A DNA stretch of 64,000 nt from Candidatus Magasanikiibacteriota bacterium (GTDB taxonomy: Bacteria > Patescibacteriota > Patescibacteriia > Magasanikbacterales > GWA2-37-8): assembly GCA_041678665.1 (NCBI GenBank), contig JBAYNU010000002.1:5039-69038 (forward strand). Direction: 5' to 3'. How positions within the stretch are numbered: the first letter of the stretch is position 1; every line of letters starts with the position of its first letter. Below the pieces are notes generated by a model. It had not been told where the DNA came from. It made no database searches and saw only the letters and a program-made list of their open reading frames with translations. Positions 16,874-60,752 of the stretch are shown here, piece by piece. The translations under genes were made by a program, and so were the position numbers.

Positions 16874-17815
16874 ATGCACAGATTACCCTATCAGGACGAC
16901 TTTATTTTAAACCTGCGAGCAAACAACTTTTCCGAAGAAACCGCCTATAATTACGAGCGTGATTTGAATACTTTTGAATCTTTTCTTAATAACGATGTTA
17001 AAAAACCGTTTGAGGATGCTACCAAAACCGATATTTTGCGTTTCAAGGCCTATCTATCTTCCACTGACCGCAAAACTGCCACTGAACATCGTTCTAAACA
17101 AAAGCTAGGTAGTTTTTCTATCAACCGTATTTTATCGGCTCTGCGATCGTATCTAAAATTTTTAGAAGATATGGATCGTAAACCGCCCGTATCTTCGGCT
17201 ACGGTCAAATTATTAAAAACCGAGAAAAAGAACGCTCGAGTGCCAGAATTTGAGGAAATTATAAAAATAATCGAAGCGCCAACTAAGTATGAGGACGATG
17301 AAAAAGTCGCCCTACGTAATCGCGCCATGCTTGAGACACTTTTTGCTACCGGTATGCGCATTTCGGAGCTTTTATCGCTTCGGGTGCGTCAAATTGACCA
17401 AACCGGACGGGTATATATCATGGGAAAAGGGAAAAAACAACGATTTGCGTATCTCACTCCACGCGCTTTAGCCCATGTAAAAAATTATATCATCAAGCGC
17501 AACAGCACTTCGGAAATGTTATTTGTTCCCTACCGCGGACGAAATAGTCAAGAAAAGGACAAAAAAATCTCCGCCAATTATTTACAATTCAAAATAAAAC
17601 GTTACCGAGAATTGTTGGATGTAAATATTCCGGTGAGCGCACATACTTTACGCCATGCCTTTGCCACTTTTATGGCAGAAAAAGGCGCCAATCCGGCCGC
17701 TATTCAAATTTTGCTTGGTCACGAGTCTTTGGATACCACCACGCGCTATGTTCATGCTTCCGACAGATACGCGGAAAAAACTCACCACGAATTTCATCCA
17801 TTATTTAATAAATAA
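16874..17815 (+). CDS. xerD: tyrosine site-specific recombinase XerC/XerD family
   Basis: R...HxxR...Y catalytic motifs (LRHAFATFM...LGHESLDTTTRYVH). Confidence 0.85.
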   Translation: MHRLPYQDDFILNLRANNFSEETAYNYERDLNTFESFLNNDVKKPFEDATKTDILRFKAYLSSTDRKTATEHRSKQKLGSFSINRILSALRSYLKFLEDMDRKPPVSSATVKLLKTEKKNARVPEFEEIIKIIEAPTKYEDDEKVALRNRAMLETLFATGMRISELLSLRVRQIDQTGRVYIMGKGKKQRFAYLTPRALAHVKNYIIKRNSTSEMLFVPYRGRNSQEKDKKISANYLQFKIKRYRELLDVNIPVSAHTLRHAFATFMAEKGANPAAIQILLGHESLDTTTRYVHASDRYAEKTHHEFHPLFNK

Positions 17816-20405: not shown

Positions 20406-21980
20406 TTATGATATTAATTTTTTAATAGCTATTTTGATTCTGTTTATAGTTTCGTCTTTTTTCAGAACTTCAGCAATTTCAAATGGCCCCGGTGATTTAT
20501 CTTGTCCAGACAGGGCAACTCGCAGAGGCCATAAAATCTCTCCGTTATTATAATTATTTTCTTTAATCCACTCCCCTATTTTAATTTCTAAATCACTCTT
20601 ATTCCAAGATTGAACACTAAAAGTATTCAGCAACTCTTCTAGGCCCGGTAAAACTTTTGTCACAGTCTCCATATTACTCTTTTTCCATACCAAAAGCGAG
20701 CTGTCATATTCTGGTAATTCAAACACAAATGCTAATGCTTTCGGCAGCTCCGCGAGTGTCGCGACTCTTTCACGCTCCAATGGTAACGCCTTTGTTAGTT
20801 GTTCATTATTAATTGTTAATTTACTGGTTTTAAAAAAAGGTACCACTCTTTCCACTAAATTTTCTAACGGCAGGCGTTTAATATACTCTTTATTAAACCA
20901 ATCCAATTTTTCCAAATTAAATACCGCTCCGGATTTATTTACTTTGGCAAAATCAAATTCTTTAATCAAATCCTCTAAAGTAAAAAGCTCGCGATTGTCT
21001 CCCGGATTCCAACCTAAAAATGCTACAAAATTTATAACTGCTTCCGGCAAATAACCTTTTTTAATATAATCCTCCACCGCCACATCACCCTGGCGCTTGC
21101 TTAACTTGGATTTGTCGAAATTCAAAAGCAGGGGCAAGTGAGCGAATTCGGGCGGCTGCCAGCCGAAATATTTATAAAGCTGTAAATGTTTGGGAGTGCT
21201 GGAAATCCACTCTTCGCCACGACTGGCGACGGTAATCCCCATTAGATGATCGTCCACTACTACGGCCAAATGGTAAGTGGGAAAGCCATCGGATTTAATA
21301 ATTACCTGATCATCAACCAGCTCATTTTTTATTCTGATTTCCCCACGAATTAGATCATTAAAAACCGTTTCGCCGAATTTTGGCATTTTCATGCGAATAA
21401 CATGCTTTTCGCCGCCCGCGATACGTTTTTTGGCTTCCTGAGGATCAATGCCGGCGCATAAACCATCGTATCCGGTTGGTATTTTATTTTTCTGCTGCTT
21501 TTCTCGTAATTCCATTAAACGCTCCGATGAACAAAAACAATAATAAGCGTGACCTCTATCTAATAATTCCTGGGCATATTTTTGATAAATTTCCAAACGT
21601 TCAGACTGTATATATGGTCCACGTTTACCCACCTGCGCCACACAATTGTCATTCTGAGGCGCAGCTGAAGAATCCTTTTGGCTTTCAGGTGACAAGAGAT
21701 CCTTCCCTGAAGGGGTCCCTTTGGGATGCCCGCTCAGGATGACATTATCAGCGCTCTTTTTTAAAACTACGCCCTCATCTGGAACCAGGCCGGCCCAAAC
21801 TAAGGAATTTAAAATATTTTTTACGCCATCCTCGACAAATCGCTCGCGGTCGGTATCCTCGATACGCAACAAAAACTGTCCGCCGTGTTTCTTGGCGTAA
21901 AGATAGGCATACAAAGCCGTGCGCAAACCGCCAATATGCAAATAACCGGTGGGACTAGGAGCAAAACGAGTTCTAATCAT
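20406..21980 (-). CDS. gltX: glutamyl-tRNA synthetase carrying an in-frame insertion of about 33 aa derived from a palindromic repeat
   Basis: HIGG and KMSK class I motifs; 524 aa; insertion ...SPESQKDSSAAPQNDNCVAQVG... is encoded by repeat 21646..21745. Confidence 0.9.
   Translation of the reverse strand: MIRTRFAPSPTGYLHIGGLRTALYAYLYAKKHGGQFLLRIEDTDRERFVEDGVKNILNSLVWAGLVPDEGVVLKKSADNVILSGHPKGTPSGKDLLSPESQKDSSAAPQNDNCVAQVGKRGPYIQSERLEIYQKYAQELLDRGHAYYCFCSSERLMELREKQQKNKIPTGYDGLCAGIDPQEAKKRIAGGEKHVIRMKMPKFGETVFNDLIRGEIRIKNELVDDQVIIKSDGFPTYHLAVVVDDHLMGITVASRGEEWISSTPKHLQLYKYFGWQPPEFAHLPLLLNFDKSKLSKRQGDVAVEDYIKKGYLPEAVINFVAFLGWNPGDNRELFTLEDLIKEFDFAKVNKSGAVFNLEKLDWFNKEYIKRLPLENLVERVVPFFKTSKLTINNEQLTKALPLERERVATLAELPKALAFVFELPEYDSSLLVWKKSNMETVTKVLPGLEELLNTFSVQSWNKSDLEIKIGEWIKENNYNNGEILWPLRVALSGQDKSPGPFEIAEVLKKDETINRIKIAIKKLIS
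21646..21745. repeat. palindromic dispersed repeat, family A copy (TGTCATTCTGAGG...CTCAGGATGACA), in-frame inside gltX
   Basis: terminal inverted repeats plus internal GAAGAATCC core shared with copies at 44400, 45579, 47714, 55814, 57744. Confidence 0.7.
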
Positions 21981-22734
21981 AATATTTTGATTTTATCACC
22001 AACCAAGTAAATACTATGGTAGCATTTATTATTCTAATTAATCTCTTAGGCTGAATAATTAGTCGATACATCCATTCTAACCCAATTCGGCGTAAAAATA
22101 AAGGGGCGCGCGGCACGGCACCGGAAATATAATCAAATGACCCTCCTACCCCCATTGCAATTTTAACCTTAGGGATTTTAGCTAAATTTTCGTGGATCCA
22201 TTTTTCTTGCTTACTCATACCAAAAGCAACGAAAAGAATATCCGTACTAAAATTATTTATTTTATTTAAAATTGTTTCGTTATCAGCGATTATTAATTCG
22301 TAGTTATTAATTCGTAGTTCTTCAATCTTCGGGCCCTTGTTGTATCCCGCGATTTTTAAATTCGGAAATTGCTTCTGTAAATTTTCCGCTGTTTTTTTGA
22401 CCACATCCTCACTGCCTGAACCAAGCAAATATATACTTTTTTCCTGTTCTGCCGCTAATTTACAAATATCCAGCATAAAGTCTACGCCGGTCACACGCTT
22501 TAAATTAAAAAACAATTTTAACCCAAATCCATCGCAGGTATTAACATCGCCAGTATTTAGTACTTGTTTAAAATATTCGTCTTTCTGCGCGCGCACGATC
22601 ATTTCGGGATTAATGGTGTAAATTTTAGCCTGCTTTTCGGAGTGCAAAAAATCTTTCGCTACGTTAATAGCTCCATCTTTGGTATAACTTTCCACTTTTA
22701 CCCCAAGCGCAAACATGTAATTATTTTTTTTCAC
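21973..22734 (-). CDS. WecB/TagA/CpsF family glycosyltransferase (GT26)
   Basis: CDGFGL, RVTGVDFM, YLLGSG motifs. Confidence 0.75.
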   Translation of the reverse strand: MKKNNYMFALGVKVESYTKDGAINVAKDFLHSEKQAKIYTINPEMIVRAQKDEYFKQVLNTGDVNTCDGFGLKLFFNLKRVTGVDFMLDICKLAAEQEKSIYLLGSGSEDVVKKTAENLQKQFPNLKIAGYNKGPKIEELRINNYELIIADNETILNKINNFSTDILFVAFGMSKQEKWIHENLAKIPKVKIAMGVGGSFDYISGAVPRAPLFLRRIGLEWMYRLIIQPKRLIRIINATIVFTWLVIKSKYYD

Positions 22735-35661: not shown

Positions 35662-36615
35662 GTGATTTCTGTAAATTTTTTTGGCACACATGATTTTGCG
35701 GCGGGAATTTTACAGGCGCTAATTGACAGCGCTGATTTTGAAATTAAAACCGTTTTCACGGTGCCGGATAAACCGATTGGTCGCCATCAGGAAATACAAA
35801 AATCTTCGGTAAAAATTTTGGCGGAAAAATATGGATTAAGAGTTGAACAACCGGAATCTCTACAAAATTTTTCCTTACTCCTTACTCCTTACTCCTTAAA
35901 CATCGTCTGCGATTACGGTTTGCTGATACCGAAAAACATTATTGATGCCCCGGGTCATGGCTCTCTCAATGTCCACCCTTCTCTACTCCCAAAATACCGC
36001 GGAGCGACACCTGTTCAGACGGCTTTAATGAATGGTGACAGCGAAACCGGTGTGACAATAATGCTGATGGATGAGAAGCTGGATCATGGCCCGATTTTGG
36101 CGTGGAAAACGATCAAAATTGATCCGACCGACAATTACACATCTTTGAGTGAAAAACTTCTAGAAACGGCCAAATCTTTGCTTATAGACACTGTCCAAAA
36201 GTGGGTTTTAGGGCCAAAAATGCCCCCCCAACCCCAGGATGACTCCAAGGCGACTGTTTGCCACGAATTGACTCGCGCTGATGGCCAGGTGGACTTCTCC
36301 GGTCAAACCGCCCAGCAGGTTTATAATCGCTTCCGCGCCCTTACCCCTTGGCCGGGGGTGTGGACGATGCTGGGTGGAAAACGGGTAAAACTACTATCTG
36401 TCATTACCGCCATGCCTACCGGCAGGCAGGCGAAAGCAGGAATCTGTGGCAGATCCCGGGTCAAGCCCGGGATGACAGCTATTGCGGATAATCAAATATT
36501 TTTTACCTGCGCCGATGGTAATCCAATCGAAGTATTAGAACTCCAAATGGAAGGAAAAAAACCAATGACTGCCAAAGAATTTATTAACGGATATAAAACA
36601 CTTCTCCATGCATAA
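35662..36615 (+). CDS. fmt: methionyl-tRNA formyltransferase (contains two short repeat-derived segments)
   Basis: formyl transferase N domain (NVHPSLLPKYRGATP) and C-terminal domain; tandem CCTTACTC x3 at 35872-35899 and a family-A-variant segment at 36410-36480. Confidence 0.9.
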   Translation: MISVNFFGTHDFAAGILQALIDSADFEIKTVFTVPDKPIGRHQEIQKSSVKILAEKYGLRVEQPESLQNFSLLLTPYSLNIVCDYGLLIPKNIIDAPGHGSLNVHPSLLPKYRGATPVQTALMNGDSETGVTIMLMDEKLDHGPILAWKTIKIDPTDNYTSLSEKLLETAKSLLIDTVQKWVLGPKMPPQPQDDSKATVCHELTRADGQVDFSGQTAQQVYNRFRALTPWPGVWTMLGGKRVKLLSVITAMPTGRQAKAGICGRSRVKPGMTAIADNQIFFTCADGNPIEVLELQMEGKKPMTAKEFINGYKTLLHA

Positions 36616-43567: not shown

Positions 43568-46500
43568 CTAAGCCCTAAATTCGCAAATATCCCTAAAATC
43601 ACATCGTCCACAAATAAATTGACTGGGGGTGGCGGCAAAATCACGAGCGTGAATACGCTGGATAGTTTCAAGCATTTTTTCTTGCACTGCGACAATTTCT
43701 TTTTCAGAACCAAAAAATGATATCTGGGAATTTTGGTTGAGATAATAAAAAGTTAATTTACTAACAACACCAATATGATAATATTCTGGAAGCGTTTTTA
43801 CAGCCAACTGGTAAATTAATAGCTGATTTTTGTCGTCGCTCGATAATTTTTCTTTACCTTTGCCGGTTTTGTAATCCACGATATGCAATGAGCCATCGGG
43901 TAATTGATCAATACGATCAATGCGACCGCTTACCGTGAACCCGCCAATTTTTATACGAAATGACCCTTCAAGTGTAACCGGAACTGTCCAGCCATTTTTT
44001 TCATTTTCTTCATAAAATTTTTTGAGCACTTCTTTGCCTTCGGTATAATAAGTGTCACGCTGACCCTTGCTTTCGTACCAATCATCAATCCAGTGTTGAT
44101 CGTAAATTTCCAACAATTCTTTAATTTCGGGTATTTTTAGGTTACCGGATTTTTTTAAGATCGTAATCGAACTGAACAATGAATCTTGGGTGGCGCTATT
44201 TAAAACGCGCGCGCGTTCATAAAATGCCTGTAAGGTTCCATGCATGCTTTGGCCAAAACTGAAATTAGCATTACCTTTGGTGGGTATGCCGACAACATTG
44301 GCCAGCTTGTATTGATACGGACAGGTAGAATATGAATTAAGCTGTGAATAAGAAAATCGTTCGGGGAGATGATAAATTGAATCAGAACGAACTTGATCAT
44401 TGTCATTCTGAGCGGAGCGAAGCGAAGTCGAAGAATCCTTTAAACTTTGCAATCGAAGGGATTCCTCCGCTCGCCCTGCGGGCTCGGTCGGAATGACAAA
44501 TTCACTTACTCCTTTTTCCTTGCTCCTTAATCCTTTCGCCTCGTATCCGAGCTCGCTCAAAAACCGACTGTTTTTTTTCTGTCGACTGCCACCATAATCA
44601 TCAGCACTGGTTAGATATAACTTTTCCTTAGCGCGGGTCATCGCCACATAAAACAACCTTCGTTCTTCTTCGATATGCTCGTCGCCTTCCGGTAATTGCT
44701 CTTTGATTAATTCAAAAGGAATTTCAATCGCTTCGGATCTCGCGCGCGATGGAAAACGTTCTTCCACCAAATTTACTACAAACACGTATTTAAATTCCAA
44801 ACCCTTGGAGCCATGAATAGTTAAAATATTCACCGAGTCAGGGGTATCCACCATTTGATGTAATGATCCCTTGTCGCCTGAATCCACAATGTAATTAAAA
44901 TGTTCCAAAAATCCAGATACGGTCGCGCCGGCTTCGGCGGTTTCATAAGCCGAAATATATTCCAAAAATTGCTTAAGCTGGTGAATTTGTCGAATGGCGC
45001 CGCGATTACCTGCTTCTTCTTGTTTTATTAAATAACTAAAATATCCACTTTCTTCCAACCACTCCACCAAAAGCGTGGTTGGTTTGCTATTACCAACCTT
45101 GGTTTGTCCAGTTTTAATCCAAGAAGTAATTTTTTGAGCAAGTTCAAATCCAGCAACGGATAAATATAATTCCGAAGCGCGCCTAAGCGACTCGAAATAG
45201 GAAACAGATTTCTTTTTGGCAAAAGAAGTTATTTTTTGGATATCCTCGGCTGGAAATTGTAAAAACGACAAATTTAACAAACGGAATATCGCGGTTGATT
45301 CGTGGTGATTATCTAATAATTTAAGAAAGTTGATACAGTCCAAAACAATGGGCTGACGATAAAGCCCGGCTGAAGCGATAAATTCGTATGGTATCCCCTG
45401 TTTTTCCAAAGCATTAATAAACGGATCGGCATGCGCGTTGGCTCTCACCAAAATGGCAAAATCATCCCAGGTCGCGCTTTCGTTGATGGTTCTGAGCCGC
45501 GCGATTTCGTCAACCACGCTTTTTACTTCTTCATCCAGTGTGGTAGAGTGAATGTGACAGACGCTCGCCGTTCGCGCGTTGTCATTCTGAGGCGTAGTCG
45601 AAGAATCCCTTCTACTTCGAACGTTAAAGGATCCTTCGCTTCGCTCAGGATGACAATTTGCGGTGAGTCGCTTATTTATTTTGAGCTTCACCTCCAACCG
45701 ATCCGGATTATTATTCTGAATAGATTTATATGCCAAATCCAAAATTTCCTGGCAAGAACGATAATTTTCATTAAGAACAATTTCTTTGGCCTGCGAATAG
45801 TCTTCTTTAAACCGTAAAATATTATTCACGCTGGCACCGCGAAAAGCATAGATTGACTGGTCATCGTCGCCAACGACGGTAAGCTGGTTTTCTTCGCCTG
45901 CAATCATTTGTACCAACTGGTATTGCGCCCAGTTCACATCCTGAAATTCATCCACCAAAATATATTTATAACGCTCGCGTAATAATTTCAAAATATTCGG
46001 TCGTTCACGCAATAATTTTATGGTGTAAAAAATCAAATCGCCAAAATCAAGCGCGCTGTTATCAAGAAGTAATTGATTATACGCGTGATAGGCGTTGGCG
46101 ATTTCGGAAAGGCGTTTAAAATCGACGGCGGCATTACTGTCATTCCCGTGAAAACGGGAATCCGCGACTTCTGGGGCAGATCCCCGCTTTCGCCTGCCTG
46201 CCGGCAGGCATGGCGGGGATGACAATGTAGAATCGCTGTCCAACTTCATCCCTTCCGCATACTCCAAATATTCTTGCGGTGTAATAAGTTCATCTTTACA
46301 TTTAGAAAAATGTTTTAAGAGTTCGTGAATATGCTTGGCTGGGTTTCCCAAAGGTCGATAATAATCCAAATCAAATTTATCTAAATTGCGCCGCACCAAA
46401 AGCCAAGCGTCGGTTTCGGTAAGTAATTTAAATTGATTAGGTAGACCAATGTCCAATCCATGATTTTCCAAAATCCGCTGGCAAAAAGCATGGAAGGTGG

Positions 46501-46756
46501 AAATTTGCATATCCACATATCCGAGCTCAAGCATTTCATCCACGCGCGTTTGCATTTCTCCGGCTGCCTTTTCCGTAAAAGTCAACGCCAAAATTTGCTC
46601 GGGAGTAGCGAGTTTATTTTCTATTAAATGTGTAATTTTTTGCGTAATTACCGTGGTCTTACCGGTACCGGCGCCCGCCACAATCAAAAGCGGGCCGGAG
46701 GCATATTCCACGGCCTGTTTTTGCGCGGGGTTGAGAGGGTATTTTGGCATAATCAT
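43568..46756 (-). CDS. UvrD/PcrA-family SF1 DNA helicase fused to C-terminal Cas4/RecB-type PD-(D/E)xK nuclease domain with Cys4 cluster; carries three in-frame repeat-derived insertions
   Basis: GAGTGKT Walker A; C-terminal GRIDRID, VDYKTGK, QLLIYQLA nuclease motifs and STCPY...CGRCDFRDIC cysteines; 1062 aa. Confidence 0.85.
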   Translation of the reverse strand: MIMPKYPLNPAQKQAVEYASGPLLIVAGAGTGKTTVITQKITHLIENKLATPEQILALTFTEKAAGEMQTRVDEMLELGYVDMQISTFHAFCQRILENHGLDIGLPNQFKLLTETDAWLLVRRNLDKFDLDYYRPLGNPAKHIHELLKHFSKCKDELITPQEYLEYAEGMKLDSDSTLSSPPCLPAGRRKRGSAPEVADSRFHGNDSNAAVDFKRLSEIANAYHAYNQLLLDNSALDFGDLIFYTIKLLRERPNILKLLRERYKYILVDEFQDVNWAQYQLVQMIAGEENQLTVVGDDDQSIYAFRGASVNNILRFKEDYSQAKEIVLNENYRSCQEILDLAYKSIQNNNPDRLEVKLKINKRLTANCHPERSEGSFNVRSRRDSSTTPQNDNARTASVCHIHSTTLDEEVKSVVDEIARLRTINESATWDDFAILVRANAHADPFINALEKQGIPYEFIASAGLYRQPIVLDCINFLKLLDNHHESTAIFRLLNLSFLQFPAEDIQKITSFAKKKSVSYFESLRRASELYLSVAGFELAQKITSWIKTGQTKVGNSKPTTLLVEWLEESGYFSYLIKQEEAGNRGAIRQIHQLKQFLEYISAYETAEAGATVSGFLEHFNYIVDSGDKGSLHQMVDTPDSVNILTIHGSKGLEFKYVFVVNLVEERFPSRARSEAIEIPFELIKEQLPEGDEHIEEERRLFYVAMTRAKEKLYLTSADDYGGSRQKKNSRFLSELGYEAKGLRSKEKGVSEFVIPTEPAGRAEESLRLQSLKDSSTSLRSAQNDNDQVRSDSIYHLPERFSYSQLNSYSTCPYQYKLANVVGIPTKGNANFSFGQSMHGTLQAFYERARVLNSATQDSLFSSITILKKSGNLKIPEIKELLEIYDQHWIDDWYESKGQRDTYYTEGKEVLKKFYEENEKNGWTVPVTLEGSFRIKIGGFTVSGRIDRIDQLPDGSLHIVDYKTGKGKEKLSSDDKNQLLIYQLAVKTLPEYYHIGVVSKLTFYYLNQNSQISFFGSEKEIVAVQEKMLETIQRIHARDFAATPSQFICGRCDFRDICEFRA
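44400..44499. repeat. family A palindromic repeat copy, in-frame inside the helicase gene
   Basis: TTGTCATTCTGAGCG...GAAGAATCC...CGGAATGACAA. Confidence 0.7.
45579..45656. repeat. family A palindromic repeat copy, in-frame inside the helicase gene
   Basis: TTGTCATTCTGAGGCG...GAAGAATCC...GGATCCTTC...CGCTCAGGATGACAA. Confidence 0.75.
46138..46225. repeat. family A variant copy (TGTCATTCCCG...CGGGGATGACA, internal GCCTGCCGGCAGGC palindrome), in-frame inside the helicase gene
   Basis: terminal IRs; related fragments at 36410-36480, 31320-31345, 46763-46790. Confidence 0.65.
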
Positions 46757-46892: not shown

Positions 46893-47183
46893 ATGAAACA
46901 CAACGAAAGAGTCATCAATGCCGTGGTAATAGGGGCATTGATACTGGTATTCCTCCTGTGGTGGGGGCTAGCCAATGACTACGCGTCTTTTAAAAAGATG
47001 TGCGCGTTGTCAGAAGAAGCAGCTTGTCGTGAGGCAGGTTATGCTCCGCCCATCGTATGGAGCATGAATGAGAAAGCGCTCTTTTGCCATGACGACAAAG
47101 GGCTAAAACACCAAATAAAGATTCCAGCCTGCAACTGCAAGTTGGACCCTGGAGCGAAAGAATGCCGCTTCTTGAAAAAGTAA
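46893..47183 (+). CDS. hypothetical small secreted or membrane-anchored Cys-containing protein
   Basis: 96 aa, N-terminal hydrophobic helix, 6 Cys; strong AAGGAG SD; elevated GC. Confidence 0.5.
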   Translation: MKHNERVINAVVIGALILVFLLWWGLANDYASFKKMCALSEEAACREAGYAPPIVWSMNEKALFCHDDKGLKHQIKIPACNCKLDPGAKECRFLKK

Positions 47184-47186
47184 AAC

Positions 47187-47227
47187 AGACCGTGCAATCA
47201 GGGAGGATTGCACGGTCTCTATTTTTA
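47187..47227 (+). terminator. intrinsic terminator (copy 1 of a duplicated 52-nt segment)
   Basis: AGACCGTGCAATC-agggag-GATTGCACGGTCT 13-bp perfect stem followed by TATTTTTAT. Confidence 0.8.
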
Positions 47228-47303: not shown

Positions 47304-47636
47304 ATGAAAAAATATAAATGGGCAGTAGTATATTTATTTTTGGTCTTGCTCTTTTGGCAACTCGGCAATTTATTAAATGCCCACACCGAAAAGCTCAAAG
47401 CAGGTTTCATACTTTCGCAAGAAGCTTTATCGCTCTATTGCTATCATCGCTTCGGCGATGAAAGTGAAAAAGTAATGATAACAATAGGCGACACACAGCT
47501 GGAAAAAAAAGATTATACGATGTGTTTTGTCCCGCGAGAAGGGGCTCTCTACTTTATTGTGAGCCTAAATCAATGTACGAACACGCAGGACTATGACGAC
47601 TGCATGTTCCTCACCGGGGCGGCGGAAGAATTTTGA
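47304..47636 (+). CDS. hypothetical small secreted or membrane-anchored Cys-containing protein
   Basis: 110 aa, N-terminal hydrophobic helix, 4 Cys; AGGAGG SD. Confidence 0.5.
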   Translation: MKKYKWAVVYLFLVLLFWQLGNLLNAHTEKLKAGFILSQEALSLYCYHRFGDESEKVMITIGDTQLEKKDYTMCFVPREGALYFIVSLNQCTNTQDYDDCMFLTGAAEEF

Positions 47637-47650
47637 GCATAGCTTCAAAC

Positions 47651-47692
47651 AGACCGTGCAATCAGGGAGGATTGCACGGTCTCTATTTTTTA
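47651..47692 (+). terminator. intrinsic terminator (copy 2, identical to 47187..47227)
   Basis: same 13-bp stem followed by T-run. Confidence 0.8.
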
Positions 47693-47713: not shown

Positions 47714-47796
47714 TTGTCATTCTGAGGAAGTGAAACGACCGAAGAATCCCTTAAATCACAAAGTCAAAGAGATCCTTCGCTTCGCTCAGGATGACA
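47714..47796. repeat. family A palindromic repeat copy (intergenic)
   Basis: TTGTCATTCTGAGG...GAAGAATCC...GATCCTTCGCTTCGCTCAGGATGACAG. Confidence 0.7.
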
Positions 47797-50026: not shown

Positions 50027-50169
50027 ACAAAGAAGGAATAAAGAATAAGGATTAAGGAATAAACGAACACAAAATATATTTACTCCTTAATTTTTATTCC
50101 TTACTCATTATTATACCACAACCAAAAAACCCGGCAATACAACCGGGCTTTCGTGTCAAGTAGGGTAAA

Positions 50170-50604: not shown

Positions 50605-50673
50605 ATTTATTTACGATACACGATACATGGAAAATGATACATTTGTATATTATTCCATGTATTTTGCATGCTG

Positions 50674-52065
<1,392 letters not shown>

Positions 52066-52434
52066 TTAAGAGTTGGTTTTAAGATAATTAATAATATGAT
52101 CTAAAAATAATTTTCCTTTCTCGATATCATCATCTGTAGTCCGATCTGGATCGCGCTTAGGCATCGCTTGGACAAACTCGATAAAATTTTCACACTCACT
52201 TCGTATTTCTGTGCTAAGTGTTTGGTCCCTTCTTAATAGACTTACTATTTCTGACGCAATACTCGAAAACCAAGCACCACGACATCTATAATTATAATAA
52301 TTAGGATGGTCTGGTTTTAAAATCTCCGACGGTATATCATCTGTCCACTTTCTGTCATCCCGTAACTCTAGGATATTCTCCAAAACTTGTTTTCTGATTA
52401 ATTCGACCGGGTATCCTTGGGTTTCTGTGCTCAT
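52066..52434 (-). CDS. hypothetical protein inserted between atpG and atpD
   Basis: 122 aa, acidic, no recognisable family; not a canonical atp operon member. Confidence 0.5.
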   Translation of the reverse strand: MSTETQGYPVELIRKQVLENILELRDDRKWTDDIPSEILKPDHPNYYNYRCRGAWFSSIASEIVSLLRRDQTLSTEIRSECENFIEFVQAMPKRDPDRTTDDDIEKGKLFLDHIINYLKTNS

Positions 52435-52439
52435 AAACG

Positions 52440-53399
52440 TTATTCCAACGCCGCCGATCCACCGGCGATTTCCGCAATTTCTTGCGTGATGCCGGCCTGG
52501 CGGGCTTTGTTAAAATTCAAATTTAATTCTTTGATCATATCGGTGGCCGCTTCAGACGCGTTTTTCATGGCCATCATGCGGGCGCTGTGTTCGCTGGCGG
52601 ACGATTCCAAAAGCGCTTGAAAAATTTGCGTTTCTACCAAACGCGGTAAAATAATTTTTAAAACCTCGGTACGATTTGGTTCAAATAAATATTCGCCTAG
52701 TTCGATTTTTGGTTCGCTTACTCCTTGTTCCTTATTCTTTATTCCTTCATTATCCCCGATCATCTTTTCCAAATCCACTTCCGACACCGGCAAAACCTGT
52801 CTTAACTTAGCCACCTGCGCGATGGCCGATTTAAAATCGGTGTAAGCCACTACCACCTTGTCGTATTTGCCGGATTCGTAATCCGCAATTATTGTACGCG
52901 CAGCCGGCAAAATATCTTTGAGCCCGGGAGTATCTGGCAGTCCGGTATAAGACGCGGTTAAATTGTATTTCATTTTTTTGGCAAATTCGGCGCCTTTTTT
53001 TCCAATTCCCAAAACATCCACCTCAATATTATCGGACGGCTCTACTACTTTTCCGGCCACGCGCTGGCGACTAATATTTTTGGGATCCTGGAGTTGCGCC
53101 GCCGTCTTGCGAATGATATTGGCATTGAAACTGCCGCACAGCCCGCGATTGCTGGTAATCAAGATCACTAATAATTTTTTCACCGGCCTAATATCCATAA
53201 GAGCAATGCCTTCGCGCTCGCCTTTGGAAAGATTTACCAAAAGATCCCAGGCCATTTTGGCATAGGTGCGCGTGTTTTGCGCCGCTTCCACCGCTTTTCT
53301 CATCTTGACGGCGGACATCATTTCCATGGCTTTGGTAATCTTTTTGGTATTACCCACGGATTTGATGCGACGTTTGATTGCTTTGGTATTTACGGCCAT
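52440..53399 (-). CDS. atpG: F1 ATP synthase gamma subunit (contains a family-B repeat-derived segment)
   Basis: N-terminal IKRRIKSVGNTKKITKAMEMMSAVKMRKA; start taken at MAVNTK (ORF track extends to 53408 with a non-ATG start). Confidence 0.9.
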   Translation of the reverse strand: MAVNTKAIKRRIKSVGNTKKITKAMEMMSAVKMRKAVEAAQNTRTYAKMAWDLLVNLSKGEREGIALMDIRPVKKLLVILITSNRGLCGSFNANIIRKTAAQLQDPKNISRQRVAGKVVEPSDNIEVDVLGIGKKGAEFAKKMKYNLTASYTGLPDTPGLKDILPAARTIIADYESGKYDKVVVAYTDFKSAIAQVAKLRQVLPVSEVDLEKMIGDNEGIKNKEQGVSEPKIELGEYLFEPNRTEVLKIILPRLVETQIFQALLESSASEHSARMMAMKNASEAATDMIKELNLNFNKARQAGITQEIAEIAGGSAALE

Positions 53400-53425
53400 A
53401 CTTAACAATATACAAAATACATGGA

Positions 53426-53797
53426 TTACGATACACTTTCTATTTTTTCTTCTAATTTATCTATTGTCACCCAAATCATTTTTCCTATTTCATTAGACAT
53501 TTCCAAACCGACATTATATTCATCTTTACTAATCCAGTTCTGAATAAACGCGAAATATATTATATACTTACATTCTTGCGACGAACCATGTGATATCTCA
53601 TAAAAATTTAACTTAACTTTGTCTCGCCTACGCGCGTATCCCTCAACATAATTCAACATTATAGACATTGATGCTCGGCGCAACTGCGAACTAACGCCAT
53701 ACAATTCATTACTTGGAAAATTTTTCACTATCTGATAACAGTATAAAACGAATCTATTAATTTTATTTTTCAACAATACATGAAATTTTCCCTCCAT
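53426..53797 (-). CDS. four-helix-bundle protein (23S rRNA intervening-sequence protein family) inserted between atpA and atpG
   Basis: LRRASMSIMLNYVEGYARR...HGSSQECKYIIYFA core matches the TIGR02436-type four-helix-bundle family; flanked by inverted repeats. Confidence 0.75.
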   Translation of the reverse strand: MEGKFHVLLKNKINRFVLYCYQIVKNFPSNELYGVSSQLRRASMSIMLNYVEGYARRRDKVKLNFYEISHGSSQECKYIIYFAFIQNWISKDEYNVGLEMSNEIGKMIWVTIDKLEEKIESVS

Positions 53798-53828
53798 ATA
53801 AATTTGTATATTTTTCCATGTATATTGT

Positions 53829-55813: not shown

Positions 55814-55915
55814 TTGTCATCCTGAGTGAGCGAAGCGAATCGAAGAATCTGTGATTATTCGCCGATAAATTCTTCGACTTCATTCACCTTTGGCTCATTT
55901 CGCTCAGAATGACAA
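55814..55915. repeat. family A palindromic repeat copy, atpF-atpH intercistronic
   Basis: TTGTCATCCTGAGTGAGCGAAGCGAATCGAAGAATC...GAATTCTTCGAC...CGCTCAGAATGACAA. Confidence 0.7.
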
Positions 55916-57743: not shown

Positions 57744-57801
57744 TTGTCATCCTGAGTGAAACGAAGGATCTAGATTCTTCGACTACGCCTCAGAATGACA
57801 A
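57744..57801. repeat. family A palindromic repeat copy (short form), exactly fills the atpZ-atpB intercistronic gap
   Basis: TTGTCATCCTGAGTGAAACGAAGGATCTAGATTCTTCGACTACGCCTCAGAATGACAA. Confidence 0.7.
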
Positions 57802-57802
57802 T

Positions 57803-58090
57803 TTAATTTAATTTATTATACTGATCCCCGTAGCGCTTGGCCTTTTTTTGTATAATGCGCACAGTAGCGGCAAAGGCTAAAACCAAACAAATTATTAAAA
57901 AAAGAGGATATTTATCAAATTTATTATCTAACCAATTTCCTAATAATACCCCCAACACCGCCGGTACAGCAATAGCTATCCCAAAATCCCCTACGATCCG
58001 CATTGCGAACATATAATAAGCTCGATCGCTGGTTTTTCTTTGCTCGCCAGAGCCTTGACGAAGGCGAGTTTTGTCCGATTCTTCATTCAT
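57803..58090 (-). CDS. AtpZ/AtpI-like small membrane protein preceding the atp operon
   Basis: 95 aa, two TM helices, position upstream of atpB. Confidence 0.55.
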   Translation of the reverse strand: MNEESDKTRLRQGSGEQRKTSDRAYYMFAMRIVGDFGIAIAVPAVLGVLLGNWLDNKFDKYPLFLIICLVLAFAATVRIIQKKAKRYGDQYNKLN

Positions 58091-60701: not shown

Positions 60702-60752
60702 ATGTTAAGGATTAAGGAATAAAGAGTAAGGAATAAATTATTTAGTCCACTA

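Follow-up and report, generated by a model that had tools for sequence, protein, structure and literature searches.

Two groups of small palindromic repeats come closest to the element described here. The first is the CGTC-tagged superfamily of repetitive extragenic palindromes (REPs) defined by Di Nocera, De Gregorio and Rocco (2013, BMC Genomics 14:522; PMC3733652), which includes dRS3 of Neisseria and RPE-4 and RPE-6 of Rickettsia. Its members carry an unpaired tetranucleotide, CGTC or one of the variants TGTC and CCTC, followed by a stem of 8-9 bp that opens with an A-T pair, a loop of 4-5 nt and a short single-stranded tail with the consensus CCA; they are present in several phyla, mostly as inverted dimers with variable and often structured spacers but also as singlets, and they have no dedicated transposase (PMC3733652). 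Intragenic copies encode 20-30 amino acids in UvrD/Rep helicases, RecBCD, DNA polymerases and tRNA synthetases, and CGTC-1 dimers lie within the glycyl-tRNA synthetase beta and isoleucyl-tRNA synthetase genes of Erythrobacter litoralis (PMC3733652). The second group consists of the Rickettsia palindromic elements (RPEs), repeats of about 100-150 bp that are inserted in-frame in unrelated housekeeping genes of a small-genome bacterium and whose peptides were considered compatible with the folding and function of the proteins (Ogata et al. 2000, Science 290:347, as related in PMC10969869 and PMC3733652). In this study, we analysed a palindromic element, A1, within gltX, the gene for glutamyl-tRNA synthetase (GluRS), in a 64-kb stretch of DNA from Candidatus Magasanikbacteria (referred to as “the window”), a member of the Candidate Phyla Radiation (CPR). 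We propose, with a probability of roughly 80%, that A1 is a non-autonomous palindromic repeat that was inserted in the DNA for a hairpin turn of the enzyme and is translated as a tolerated passenger.

The gene and the parts of the element are located as follows.

20406-21980, minus strand: gltX, glutamyl-tRNA synthetase, 524 aa.
21647-21744, minus strand: element A1, a 98-nt imperfect palindrome in gltX, covering residues ~79-112, NVILSGHPKGTPSGKDLLSPESQKDSSAAPQNDN.
21698-21744, minus strand: 5' arm of A1 (in the sense of the gene), made up of the TGTC head, ATCCT, an expanded 32-nt loop, AGGAT and C.
21676-21697, minus strand: spacer between the two arms, 22 nt.
21647-21675, plus strand: second arm of A1, made up of TGTC, ATTCT, GAGGCGCAGCTGA, AGAAT and CC.

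The gltX gene of the window encodes an intact class I bacterial GluRS. Its product matches Pfam families PF00749 (tRNA-synt_1c, 2.3e-103) and PF19269 (Anticodon_2, the GluRS anticodon-binding domain, 1.8e-31), and the top matches in a PDB search were all GluRS, which bears out the identification made in a preliminary description of this DNA. The HIGH motif is present as HIGG (residues 15-18) and the KMSKS motif as KLSKR (residues 292-296), Cys148, Cys150 and Cys175 are conserved, and the protein keeps every invariant column in an alignment of 58 sequences, including H15, G17, K292, S294, K295 and R296. An AlphaFold model obtained with 58 homologues as input had a mean predicted local distance difference test score (pLDDT) of 90 and a predicted template modelling score (pTM) of 0.87; when this model was compared by Foldseek to the crystal structures 1gln, 1j09 and 4gri, the target-normalised TM-scores were 0.86-0.91 (0.91 for 1gln and 0.88 for 1j09). 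A protein identical to the window GluRS is recorded in the database as glutamate--tRNA ligase from a Candidatus Magasanikbacteria metagenome-assembled genome. The same 524-aa protein is also present in the independent Logan assembly of run SRR6484787, which speaks against an assembly chimera. The gene order wecG, gltX, M23 peptidase is shared by the window and its relatives.

The additional residues were located by alignment with solved structures and with relatives. Relative to Borrelia GluRS (4gri), residues 1-73 and 118-519 of the window protein match 26-96 and 98-505, and it proceeds from 73 to 118 where 4gri proceeds from 96 to 98. Relative to Thermus GluRS (1j09), residues 1-70 and 118-518 match 1-70 and 75-466, and it proceeds from 70 to 118 where 1j09 proceeds from 70 to 75. 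Approximately 40 residues of the window GluRS have no counterpart in the solved GluRS structures. Most of the 120 best GluRS homologues are 485-500 aa in length. The closest of these, P0002 (72% identity, 487 aa), reads DEGVVLKKD-KVAQTGK where the window protein reads DEGVVLKKSADNVILSGHPKGTPSGKDLLSPESQKDSSAAPQNDNCVAQVGK, and a codon-level comparison with its locus (L001) showed that the flanks are shared with the window gltX while the site itself is empty. The net excess of the window GluRS over its relatives is 34-36 aa, of which 1-3 residues beside the element represent ordinary loop variation. A1 begins with the third base of codon 79 and ends with the first of codon 112, its 98 nt being read as 99 nt (33 codons), and its boundaries are TGTCATTCTGAG from 21647 and CTCAGGATGACA ending at 21744.

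These results agree with most of what the preliminary description had said of the insert. The repeat copy that it gave as 21646-21745, and as the source of an in-frame insert of about 33 aa, was right to within 1 nt. The insert lies after the HIGH motif and before the KMSKS motif, that is, between the catalytic core motifs as had been stated, and its higher GC content was confirmed (0.53 for A1, compared to 0.41 for gltX and 0.39 for the window). The segment had also been said to be absent from canonical GluRS; it is lacking in the solved structures and in the nearest CPR relatives, and in the alignments with GluRS of Thermus and of close CPR relatives it matches no conserved GluRS region.

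When mapped on the AlphaFold model, residues 78-108 have pLDDT values below 50 and form the only long low-confidence stretch of the protein, with flanks at 85-98. They lie between two short strands (residues 69-74 and 113-117) that make up a beta-hairpin, and the insert is placed at the hairpin tip, in the Rossmann-fold half of the enzyme. The excursion from DEG to GPY is about 7 residues long in Thermus and Borrelia, 14-16 in Magasanikbacteria and 50 in the window protein. The insert is thus modelled as a disordered loop, predicted to occupy a solvent-exposed hairpin turn, and this site would be remote from both the tRNA and the active site. Tryptic peptides expected of a GluRS bearing the insert include GTPSGK, DLLSPESQK and DSSAAPQNDNCVAQVGK.

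A1 belongs to a repeat family. It consists of two inverted TGTC-headed units of the REP type, with the termini TGTCATYCTGAG...CTCAGRATGACA. A 26-mer taken from it has a second site in the window at three or fewer mismatches, compared to 0.00 matches in shuffled sequence, and its second arm is 88-90% identical to arms at 45579-45611 and 57773-57803. The window contains eight elements in total; those other than A1, together with the gene that carries three of them, are the following.

36399-36477, plus strand: element B1, 79 nt, in fmt (35662-36615), read as VITAMPTGRQAKAGICGRSRVKPGMT.
43568-46756, minus strand: gene for a UvrD/PcrA-type helicase fused to a PD-(D/E)XK nuclease, 1062 aa, with three in-frame elements.
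44401-44498, minus strand: element A2, 98 nt, in the helicase open reading frame (ORF), read as VIPTEPAGRAEESLRLQSLKDSSTSLRSAQND.
45580-45655, minus strand: element A3, 76 nt, in the helicase ORF, read as CHPERSEGSFNVRSRRDSSTTPQND.
46138-46224, minus strand: element B2, 87 nt, in the helicase ORF, read as SSPPCLPAGRRKRGSAPEVADSRFHGND; one of its arms is TGTCATTCCCGTGAAAACGGGAATC.
47715-47796, plus strand: element A4, 82 nt, intergenic.
55815-55914, plus strand: element A5, 100 nt, between atpF and atpH.
57745-57800, plus strand: element A6, 56 nt, a minimal form with two arms and a 4-nt loop, between an atpI-like gene and atpB.

A1 to A6 share inverted termini, and B1 and B2 have the same TGTCAT...ATGACA ends with a different interior. 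Each of the eight is an imperfect palindrome, and their RNA minimum free energies range from -20 to -53 kcal/mol (-33.4 kcal/mol for A1, z = -1.67). One copy is located in gltX, three in the helicase gene, one in fmt and three in short intergenic spacers, two of which are within the ATP synthase operon. As three copies are intergenic, the repeat is not derived from gltX. No direct repeats or target-site duplications flank any of the eight window copies or the complete copies from other phyla. The preliminary description had called such an insert in an essential synthetase unusual, which was an overstatement: in-frame palindromic repeats in essential genes are documented for the Rickettsia RPEs and for the two synthetase genes of E. 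litoralis, and the window itself has four further in-frame copies in other ORFs.

The helicase is 1062 aa in length compared to 975-985 aa for its typical homologues. For fmt, whose product is methionyl-tRNA formyltransferase, alignment with solved Fmt structures gave only a 9-residue net gap and no clean insertion for B1, which may have replaced native residues in the C-terminal domain. The mechanical call places the start of atpH (55883) within A5; as the match to the OSCP domain sets in at residue 30, the true start is probably downstream of A5.

The reading frame is preserved throughout. All five intragenic copies in the window are in-frame and free of stop codons in the frame of the host gene, and three further intragenic copies in relatives likewise have inserted lengths divisible by three and no stop in the frame of their hosts. 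A1 and A2 are each open in only one of six frames, and in both cases this is the frame used by the host gene; the three intergenic copies, when pooled, are open in 2 of 18 frames. Among the 67 ORFs of the window, none is split by any of the eight copies. Since the intragenic copies stay multiples of three and stop-free, neither of which is predicted if the element is removed before translation, A1 is most likely transcribed and translated within GluRS.

The arms of the elements were then compared to those of described repeats. All 16 window arms start with a TGTC head followed by AT, and they are closed by ...AT except for one decayed arm, the left arm of B1; they end in ...AT-C followed by C or T, a partial fit to the tail consensus CCA. 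All eight elements are inverted dimers whose spacers measure 4 to about 45 nt. When folded as single-stranded DNA, the two B arms tested each gave an 8-bp stem and a loop of 4 or 5 nt, with the head left unpaired and a tail of 1 nt (z = -4.2 and -4.5). Their stems are ATTCCCGT/ACGGGAAT, where the loop has 4 nt, and ATCCCGGG/CCCGGGAT, where it has 5 nt. The A arms, both gltX arms included, have the form TGTC-AT-NNN-GAGCGAAGCGA-NNN-AT-C, with a 5-bp Watson-Crick stem and a conserved loop of at least 11 nt. GCGAAGC is an unusually stable DNA mini-hairpin. The A-arm hairpins are thermodynamically weak (z = -0.84 to +0.5), and the 5' arm of A1 has a weak nearest-neighbour energy. The A-arm stems covary: in a set of 92 arms, which were taken from the window and from many phyla and did not include those used as the search seed, 86 have fully complementary triplets, which fall into six types (TCT/AGA, CCT/AGG, TCC/GGA, CCC/GGG, GTT/AAC and GCT/AGC). 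By eye, G-T wobbles that favour one strand and others that favour the opposite strand were seen in the long hairpin.

With the CGTC REPs the window elements have in common the TGTC head, the A-T start of the stem, the organization as inverted dimers, the occurrence in several phyla and the intragenic copies in a helicase and a synthetase, and the B arms meet the published stem and loop geometry exactly. Comparison with CGTC-1 to CGTC-4 was made on the encoded peptides rather than on consensus sequences. The B2 peptide ends in DSRFHGND, compared to DSRFRGND in the CGTC-1 dimers of Rickettsia conorii (7 of 8 residues), and the B1 peptide contains ...RVKPGMT, compared to ...RVKPGHD for CGTC-3. 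However, the A-type peptides (VILSEAKD, CHPERSEGS and ...PQNDN) are not in the 2013 catalogue, the host belongs to the CPR/Patescibacteria, which are outside the coverage of that paper, and GluRS is not one of the listed targets. Judged by its architecture, the gltX element is probably a member of the CGTC-REP superfamily by design, in a family that was not catalogued in 2013.

The RPEs are similar to the window elements in that both are palindromes lying in-frame in the genes of apparently functional proteins. They differ in host and in length, the window elements being shorter (56-100 nt). The classic coding RPE, RPE-1, is a distinct and longer sequence family, and only the B-type arms among the window elements resemble the peptides of RPE-6 (CGTC-1). 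Expression of RPE-containing proteins has been shown experimentally according to the accounts cited above, whereas the window insert is known from sequence alone. The gltX element seems to work like an RPE but is not filed as one.

The system of REPINs (doublets of REPs) and RAYTs (REP-associated tyrosine transposases) offers a further comparison. The inverted doublet of short hairpins, the singlet remnants and the lack of a target-site duplication are shared features. In contrast, REPINs have a GTAG head and lie beside a RAYT, an IS200/IS605-like Y1 tyrosine transposase, while the window head is TGTC; and classical REPINs are species-specific, whereas the window-type arm is identical across phyla. 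No Y1_Tnp, RAYT or other HUH gene is present among the 67 window ORFs. A search of the whole window against Rfam at the gathering score gave no family, and a search of 21600-21800 at E values up to 10 gave only chance-level matches (E >2). Full-text literature searches with the arm sequence and the encoded peptides found no paper, and those combining CPR with MITE (miniature inverted-repeat transposable element) or REPIN found nothing relevant.

The same GluRS loop has received other elements in relatives. Among the 120 best GluRS homologues, repeat-like internal inserts of at least 8 aa occur at one site only, and this is the loop that carries the insert in the window. P0013 and P0055 have a 74-nt element of the same family as A1, positioned straight after DEG and read as VILSEAKDPSRSDKRDSSAKPQNDN. 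P0025 (locus L124) has an unrelated 80-nt palindrome in the same hairpin, with the termini AGACCTCA...TGAGGTCT, read as RPHLNLLLKGEEVVDPSPVRRGQGEV, and the loop region of its gltX has an RNA minimum free energy of -54 kcal/mol. In P0032, a short GC-rich hairpin remnant is present in this loop. The insertion points and the element types in P0013/P0055, P0025 and P0032 differ from those in the window, and the site is empty in the closest relative; on these sequence comparisons, we conclude that the loop was struck independently at least three times. The helicase family behaves similarly: 24 of 120 homologues have 33 insert segments grouped at a few positions, and many of these end in ...QNDN or ...RNDN. 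The clustering in one GluRS loop is most simply explained by a selection filter, since insertions elsewhere would destroy an essential enzyme, although the elements may also target this loop. In the P0013 genome, the neighbouring gene, a NUDIX-WecG fusion, has an in-frame element as well (locus L003, 8652-8724; read as CHSEQSEESLLSERKGSFTSVQDD). The wecG homologue in the window (21973-22734) has none.

The arm is distributed far beyond this lineage. The exact 26-mer TGTCATCCTGAGYGAAGCGAAGGATC is present in at least 120 species-representative genomes (loci L004-L123). Hosts among the matches listed include Acidobacteriota, Verrucomicrobiota, Lachnospiraceae and other Clostridia, Bacteroidales, Chloroflexota, Gemmatimonadota, Nitrospirota, several proteobacterial classes and Patescibacteria, with at least one isolate, Mucilaginibacter sp. 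SG564. Most often the arm is here part of a hairpin element of 56-150 nt with a variable self-complementary centre, and single arms occur too. A BLAST search with a canonical 76-nt element gave no match among PLSDB plasmids or INPHARED phages, so that a plasmid or phage vector is unsupported. At some loci, tandem arrays of the 12-nt head TGTCATCCTGRG, with as many as 28 units at a period of 19-24 nt, lie on one side of a hairpin element (L120, 100-890; L012, 260-760; L082, 1580-1780). These nested terminal arrays are mirrored by repeats of the complementary head across the hairpin element.

We suggest the following sequence of events for gltX. An inverted dimer of two TGTC-headed REP-type hairpins would have inserted in the DNA for an exposed beta-hairpin turn, adding 99 bases, a multiple of three, in a frame without a stop codon. 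The element would then be transcribed and translated with gltX, its approximately 33 low-complexity residues forming a disordered loop that leaves the catalytic core, the zinc-binding cysteines and the anticodon-binding domain undamaged, and the enzyme would continue to work. The element itself would be selfish DNA that makes no target-site duplication and has no transposase nearby. Purifying selection would act as the filter, since copies in essential genes can be expected to persist only if they are in-frame and stop-free and lie in permissive loops; the retention of only tolerated copies would also account for the different elements found in the same loop of different relatives.

Several points weigh against this proposal. 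No mobilising enzyme was identified among the 67 window ORFs; these include no transposase, and the sole recombinase is a XerC/D-like tyrosine recombinase (16874-17815). Translation of the insert and activity of the enzyme that bears it are inferred from the gene. With 64 kb of the genome in view, a second, uninterrupted gltX may be located elsewhere. The gltX copy is a rather degenerate palindrome, as reflected in its RNA z value of -1.67 and in the 32-nt loop of one arm, and the A arms miss the published CGTC-REP geometry of an 8-9-bp stem and a 4-5-nt loop. Metagenome scans recovered no empty-site allele; however, they did not recover the filled junction either and thus carry no weight. Finally, the elements of P0013 and P0055 match at 22 of 24 third codon positions, which is unexpected for neutral junk and hints at constraint at the nucleotide level.

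This last point comes from a comparison of the two insert-bearing relatives. Their gltX genes have 76% amino acid identity, 73% DNA identity and 52% third-position identity; the difference between the first and last values indicates that the host gene is under purifying selection. The two elements (L003, 10216-10289, compared to the one in L125) are 93% identical in DNA and 92% identical at third positions, and differ by an in-frame one-codon indel. The element is the best 24-codon stretch of the gene, the mean number of third-position matches per stretch of this length being 12.9 (binomial p ~4e-5), and the codons flanking it carry synonymous changes. The two copies share subfamily-specific features that are missing from the paralogous copy in the P0013 genome, and for this reason they look orthologous rather than independently inserted. 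A shared element together with purifying selection implies that GluRS genes bearing an insert persist for a long time. As judged from these alignments, the pattern suggests that, within coding sequence as well, the arms are either under constraint at the level of nucleotides or made uniform by conversion.

One possible cause, which we consider rather unlikely, is a conserved trans-acting system that recognises the 26-nt hairpin across phyla, holds the arms constant, and targets copies to, or maintains them in, housekeeping-gene loops such as the GluRS beta-hairpin. If such a system exists, the intragenic copies would be more than neutral passengers, and the gltX insert would give access to an undescribed machinery that handles REPs throughout the bacteria, or to a function in cis of DNA or RNA within essential genes.

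The same observations might mean that the insert has been co-opted, either as a cis-regulatory or mRNA-stabilizing hairpin or as a new interaction loop of GluRS, and is kept by selection. The element is the most conserved stretch of the P0013/P0055 gene at third positions, the 26-nt arm is identical across many phyla, and the same loop has been struck repeatedly, all of which would fit. The peptide, however, is not conserved: three element types give rise to unrelated peptides, the closest relative has no element, and the few changes within the P0013/P0055 copy are mostly non-synonymous. Moreover, the arms are conserved in every copy, the intergenic ones included, so that their conservation reflects upkeep of the repeat family (a recognition sequence or gene conversion) rather than a role in gltX. 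We therefore regard co-option as unlikely.

It is similarly improbable that A1 is a classical MITE, which would have arisen by deletion from an insertion sequence and would rely on the DDE transposase of that sequence to recognise its TGTCAT... terminal inverted repeats. Many DDE elements typically end in TG...CA. The perfect 12-nt terminal inverted repeats and the size of 56-100 nt fit this explanation, and bacterial MITEs (Correia/NEMIS, ERIC, RUP, Nezha and the QMITE of Coxiella) are likewise small, non-coding and foldable, have terminal inverted repeats and occasionally form in-frame fusions with host ORFs. However, target-site duplications and a recognisable parent insertion sequence are features of MITEs, whereas neither the eight window copies nor the complete copies from other phyla show a duplication, and the window ORFs include no transposase. 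No full-length element was seen in the 120 loci, although distant pairs of termini were listed there and the ORFs between them were not inspected, so that a parent element is possible. Each arm also forms a covarying hairpin that follows a 4-nt head, as in a REP and unlike a plain terminal inverted repeat, and isolated single arms and tandem arrays of heads occur.

Removal of A1 before translation, either as an intervening sequence taken out of the mRNA or by excision from the DNA, would yield a protein without the 33 residues. CPR bacteria carry intervening sequences in their rRNA genes, a gene for a 23S rRNA-intervening-sequence protein is present in the window, and A1 can fold as a long hairpin. 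Yet removal does not require a reading frame, while the five window copies and the three in relatives are multiples of three without stops, A1 and A2 have stops in each of the other five frames, and P0013 and P0055 differ by a whole codon. In addition, Rfam gave no intron or ribozyme match, and 33 aa is far too short for an intein. We consider this explanation very improbable. It is also highly unlikely that gltX is disabled, redundant or an assembly artefact in a cell using another GluRS, for although only one 64-kb window of a metagenome-assembled genome is in view, the 524-codon ORF is intact with all invariant family residues, its synteny is that of its relatives, an independent assembler gave the same protein, and the insert-bearing gltX genes of relatives are under purifying selection; CPR genomes are small and normally have one gltX.

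Other repeats and insertions were noticed in the window. The ATP synthase operon is interrupted twice, by the 23S rRNA-intervening-sequence protein gene (PF05635; 53426-53797) between atpA and atpG, and by an unassigned 122-aa ORF (52066-52434) between atpG and atpD; AT-rich inverted repeats surround both interruptions (50618-50676 compared to 53403-53435 and 53796-53828). A second repeat, AT-rich and made up of AAGGAATA-like units (AAGGAATAAAGAATAAGGATTAAGGAATAA), is present at 50033-50065, 60707-60740, 52705-52751 and 44499-44535. Two of its copies are intergenic; one is in-frame in atpG (NEGIKNKEQGVSEP), whose product exceeds its Pfam match by about 30 aa, and the copy in the helicase gene directly adjoins A2 (KGLRSKEKGVSEF). 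Perfect 44-nt direct repeats (47183-47226 and 47647-47690), each with a hairpin followed by a run of T as in a terminator (AAACAGACCGTGCAATCAGGGAGGATTGCACGGTCTCTATTTTT), flank an unassigned 110-aa ORF (47304-47636).

The phenomenon itself is already known, since REP and RPE elements have been described in coding genes, those for aminoacyl-tRNA synthetases included. What is new here is the CPR host, GluRS as a target, the recurrence of different elements in a single loop, and the A-type family, which is probably uncatalogued and has an arm identical across phyla. The cross-phyla identity of this arm and the synonymous-site conservation of the P0013/P0055 copy keep alive the old question of what propagates or maintains CGTC-type REPs. 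The elements mark natural sites that tolerate insertions, namely one loop of GluRS and a few loops of a UvrD-like helicase. They also account for many of the odd lineage-specific inserts and spurious peptides in CPR proteins (VILSEAKD..., CHPERSEGS... and ...PQNDN), which is of use in annotation. Most broadly, the range of selfish DNA inside coding genes is widened from Rickettsia and the Proteobacteria to the CPR, whose genomes are tiny and in which nearly all genes are essential.

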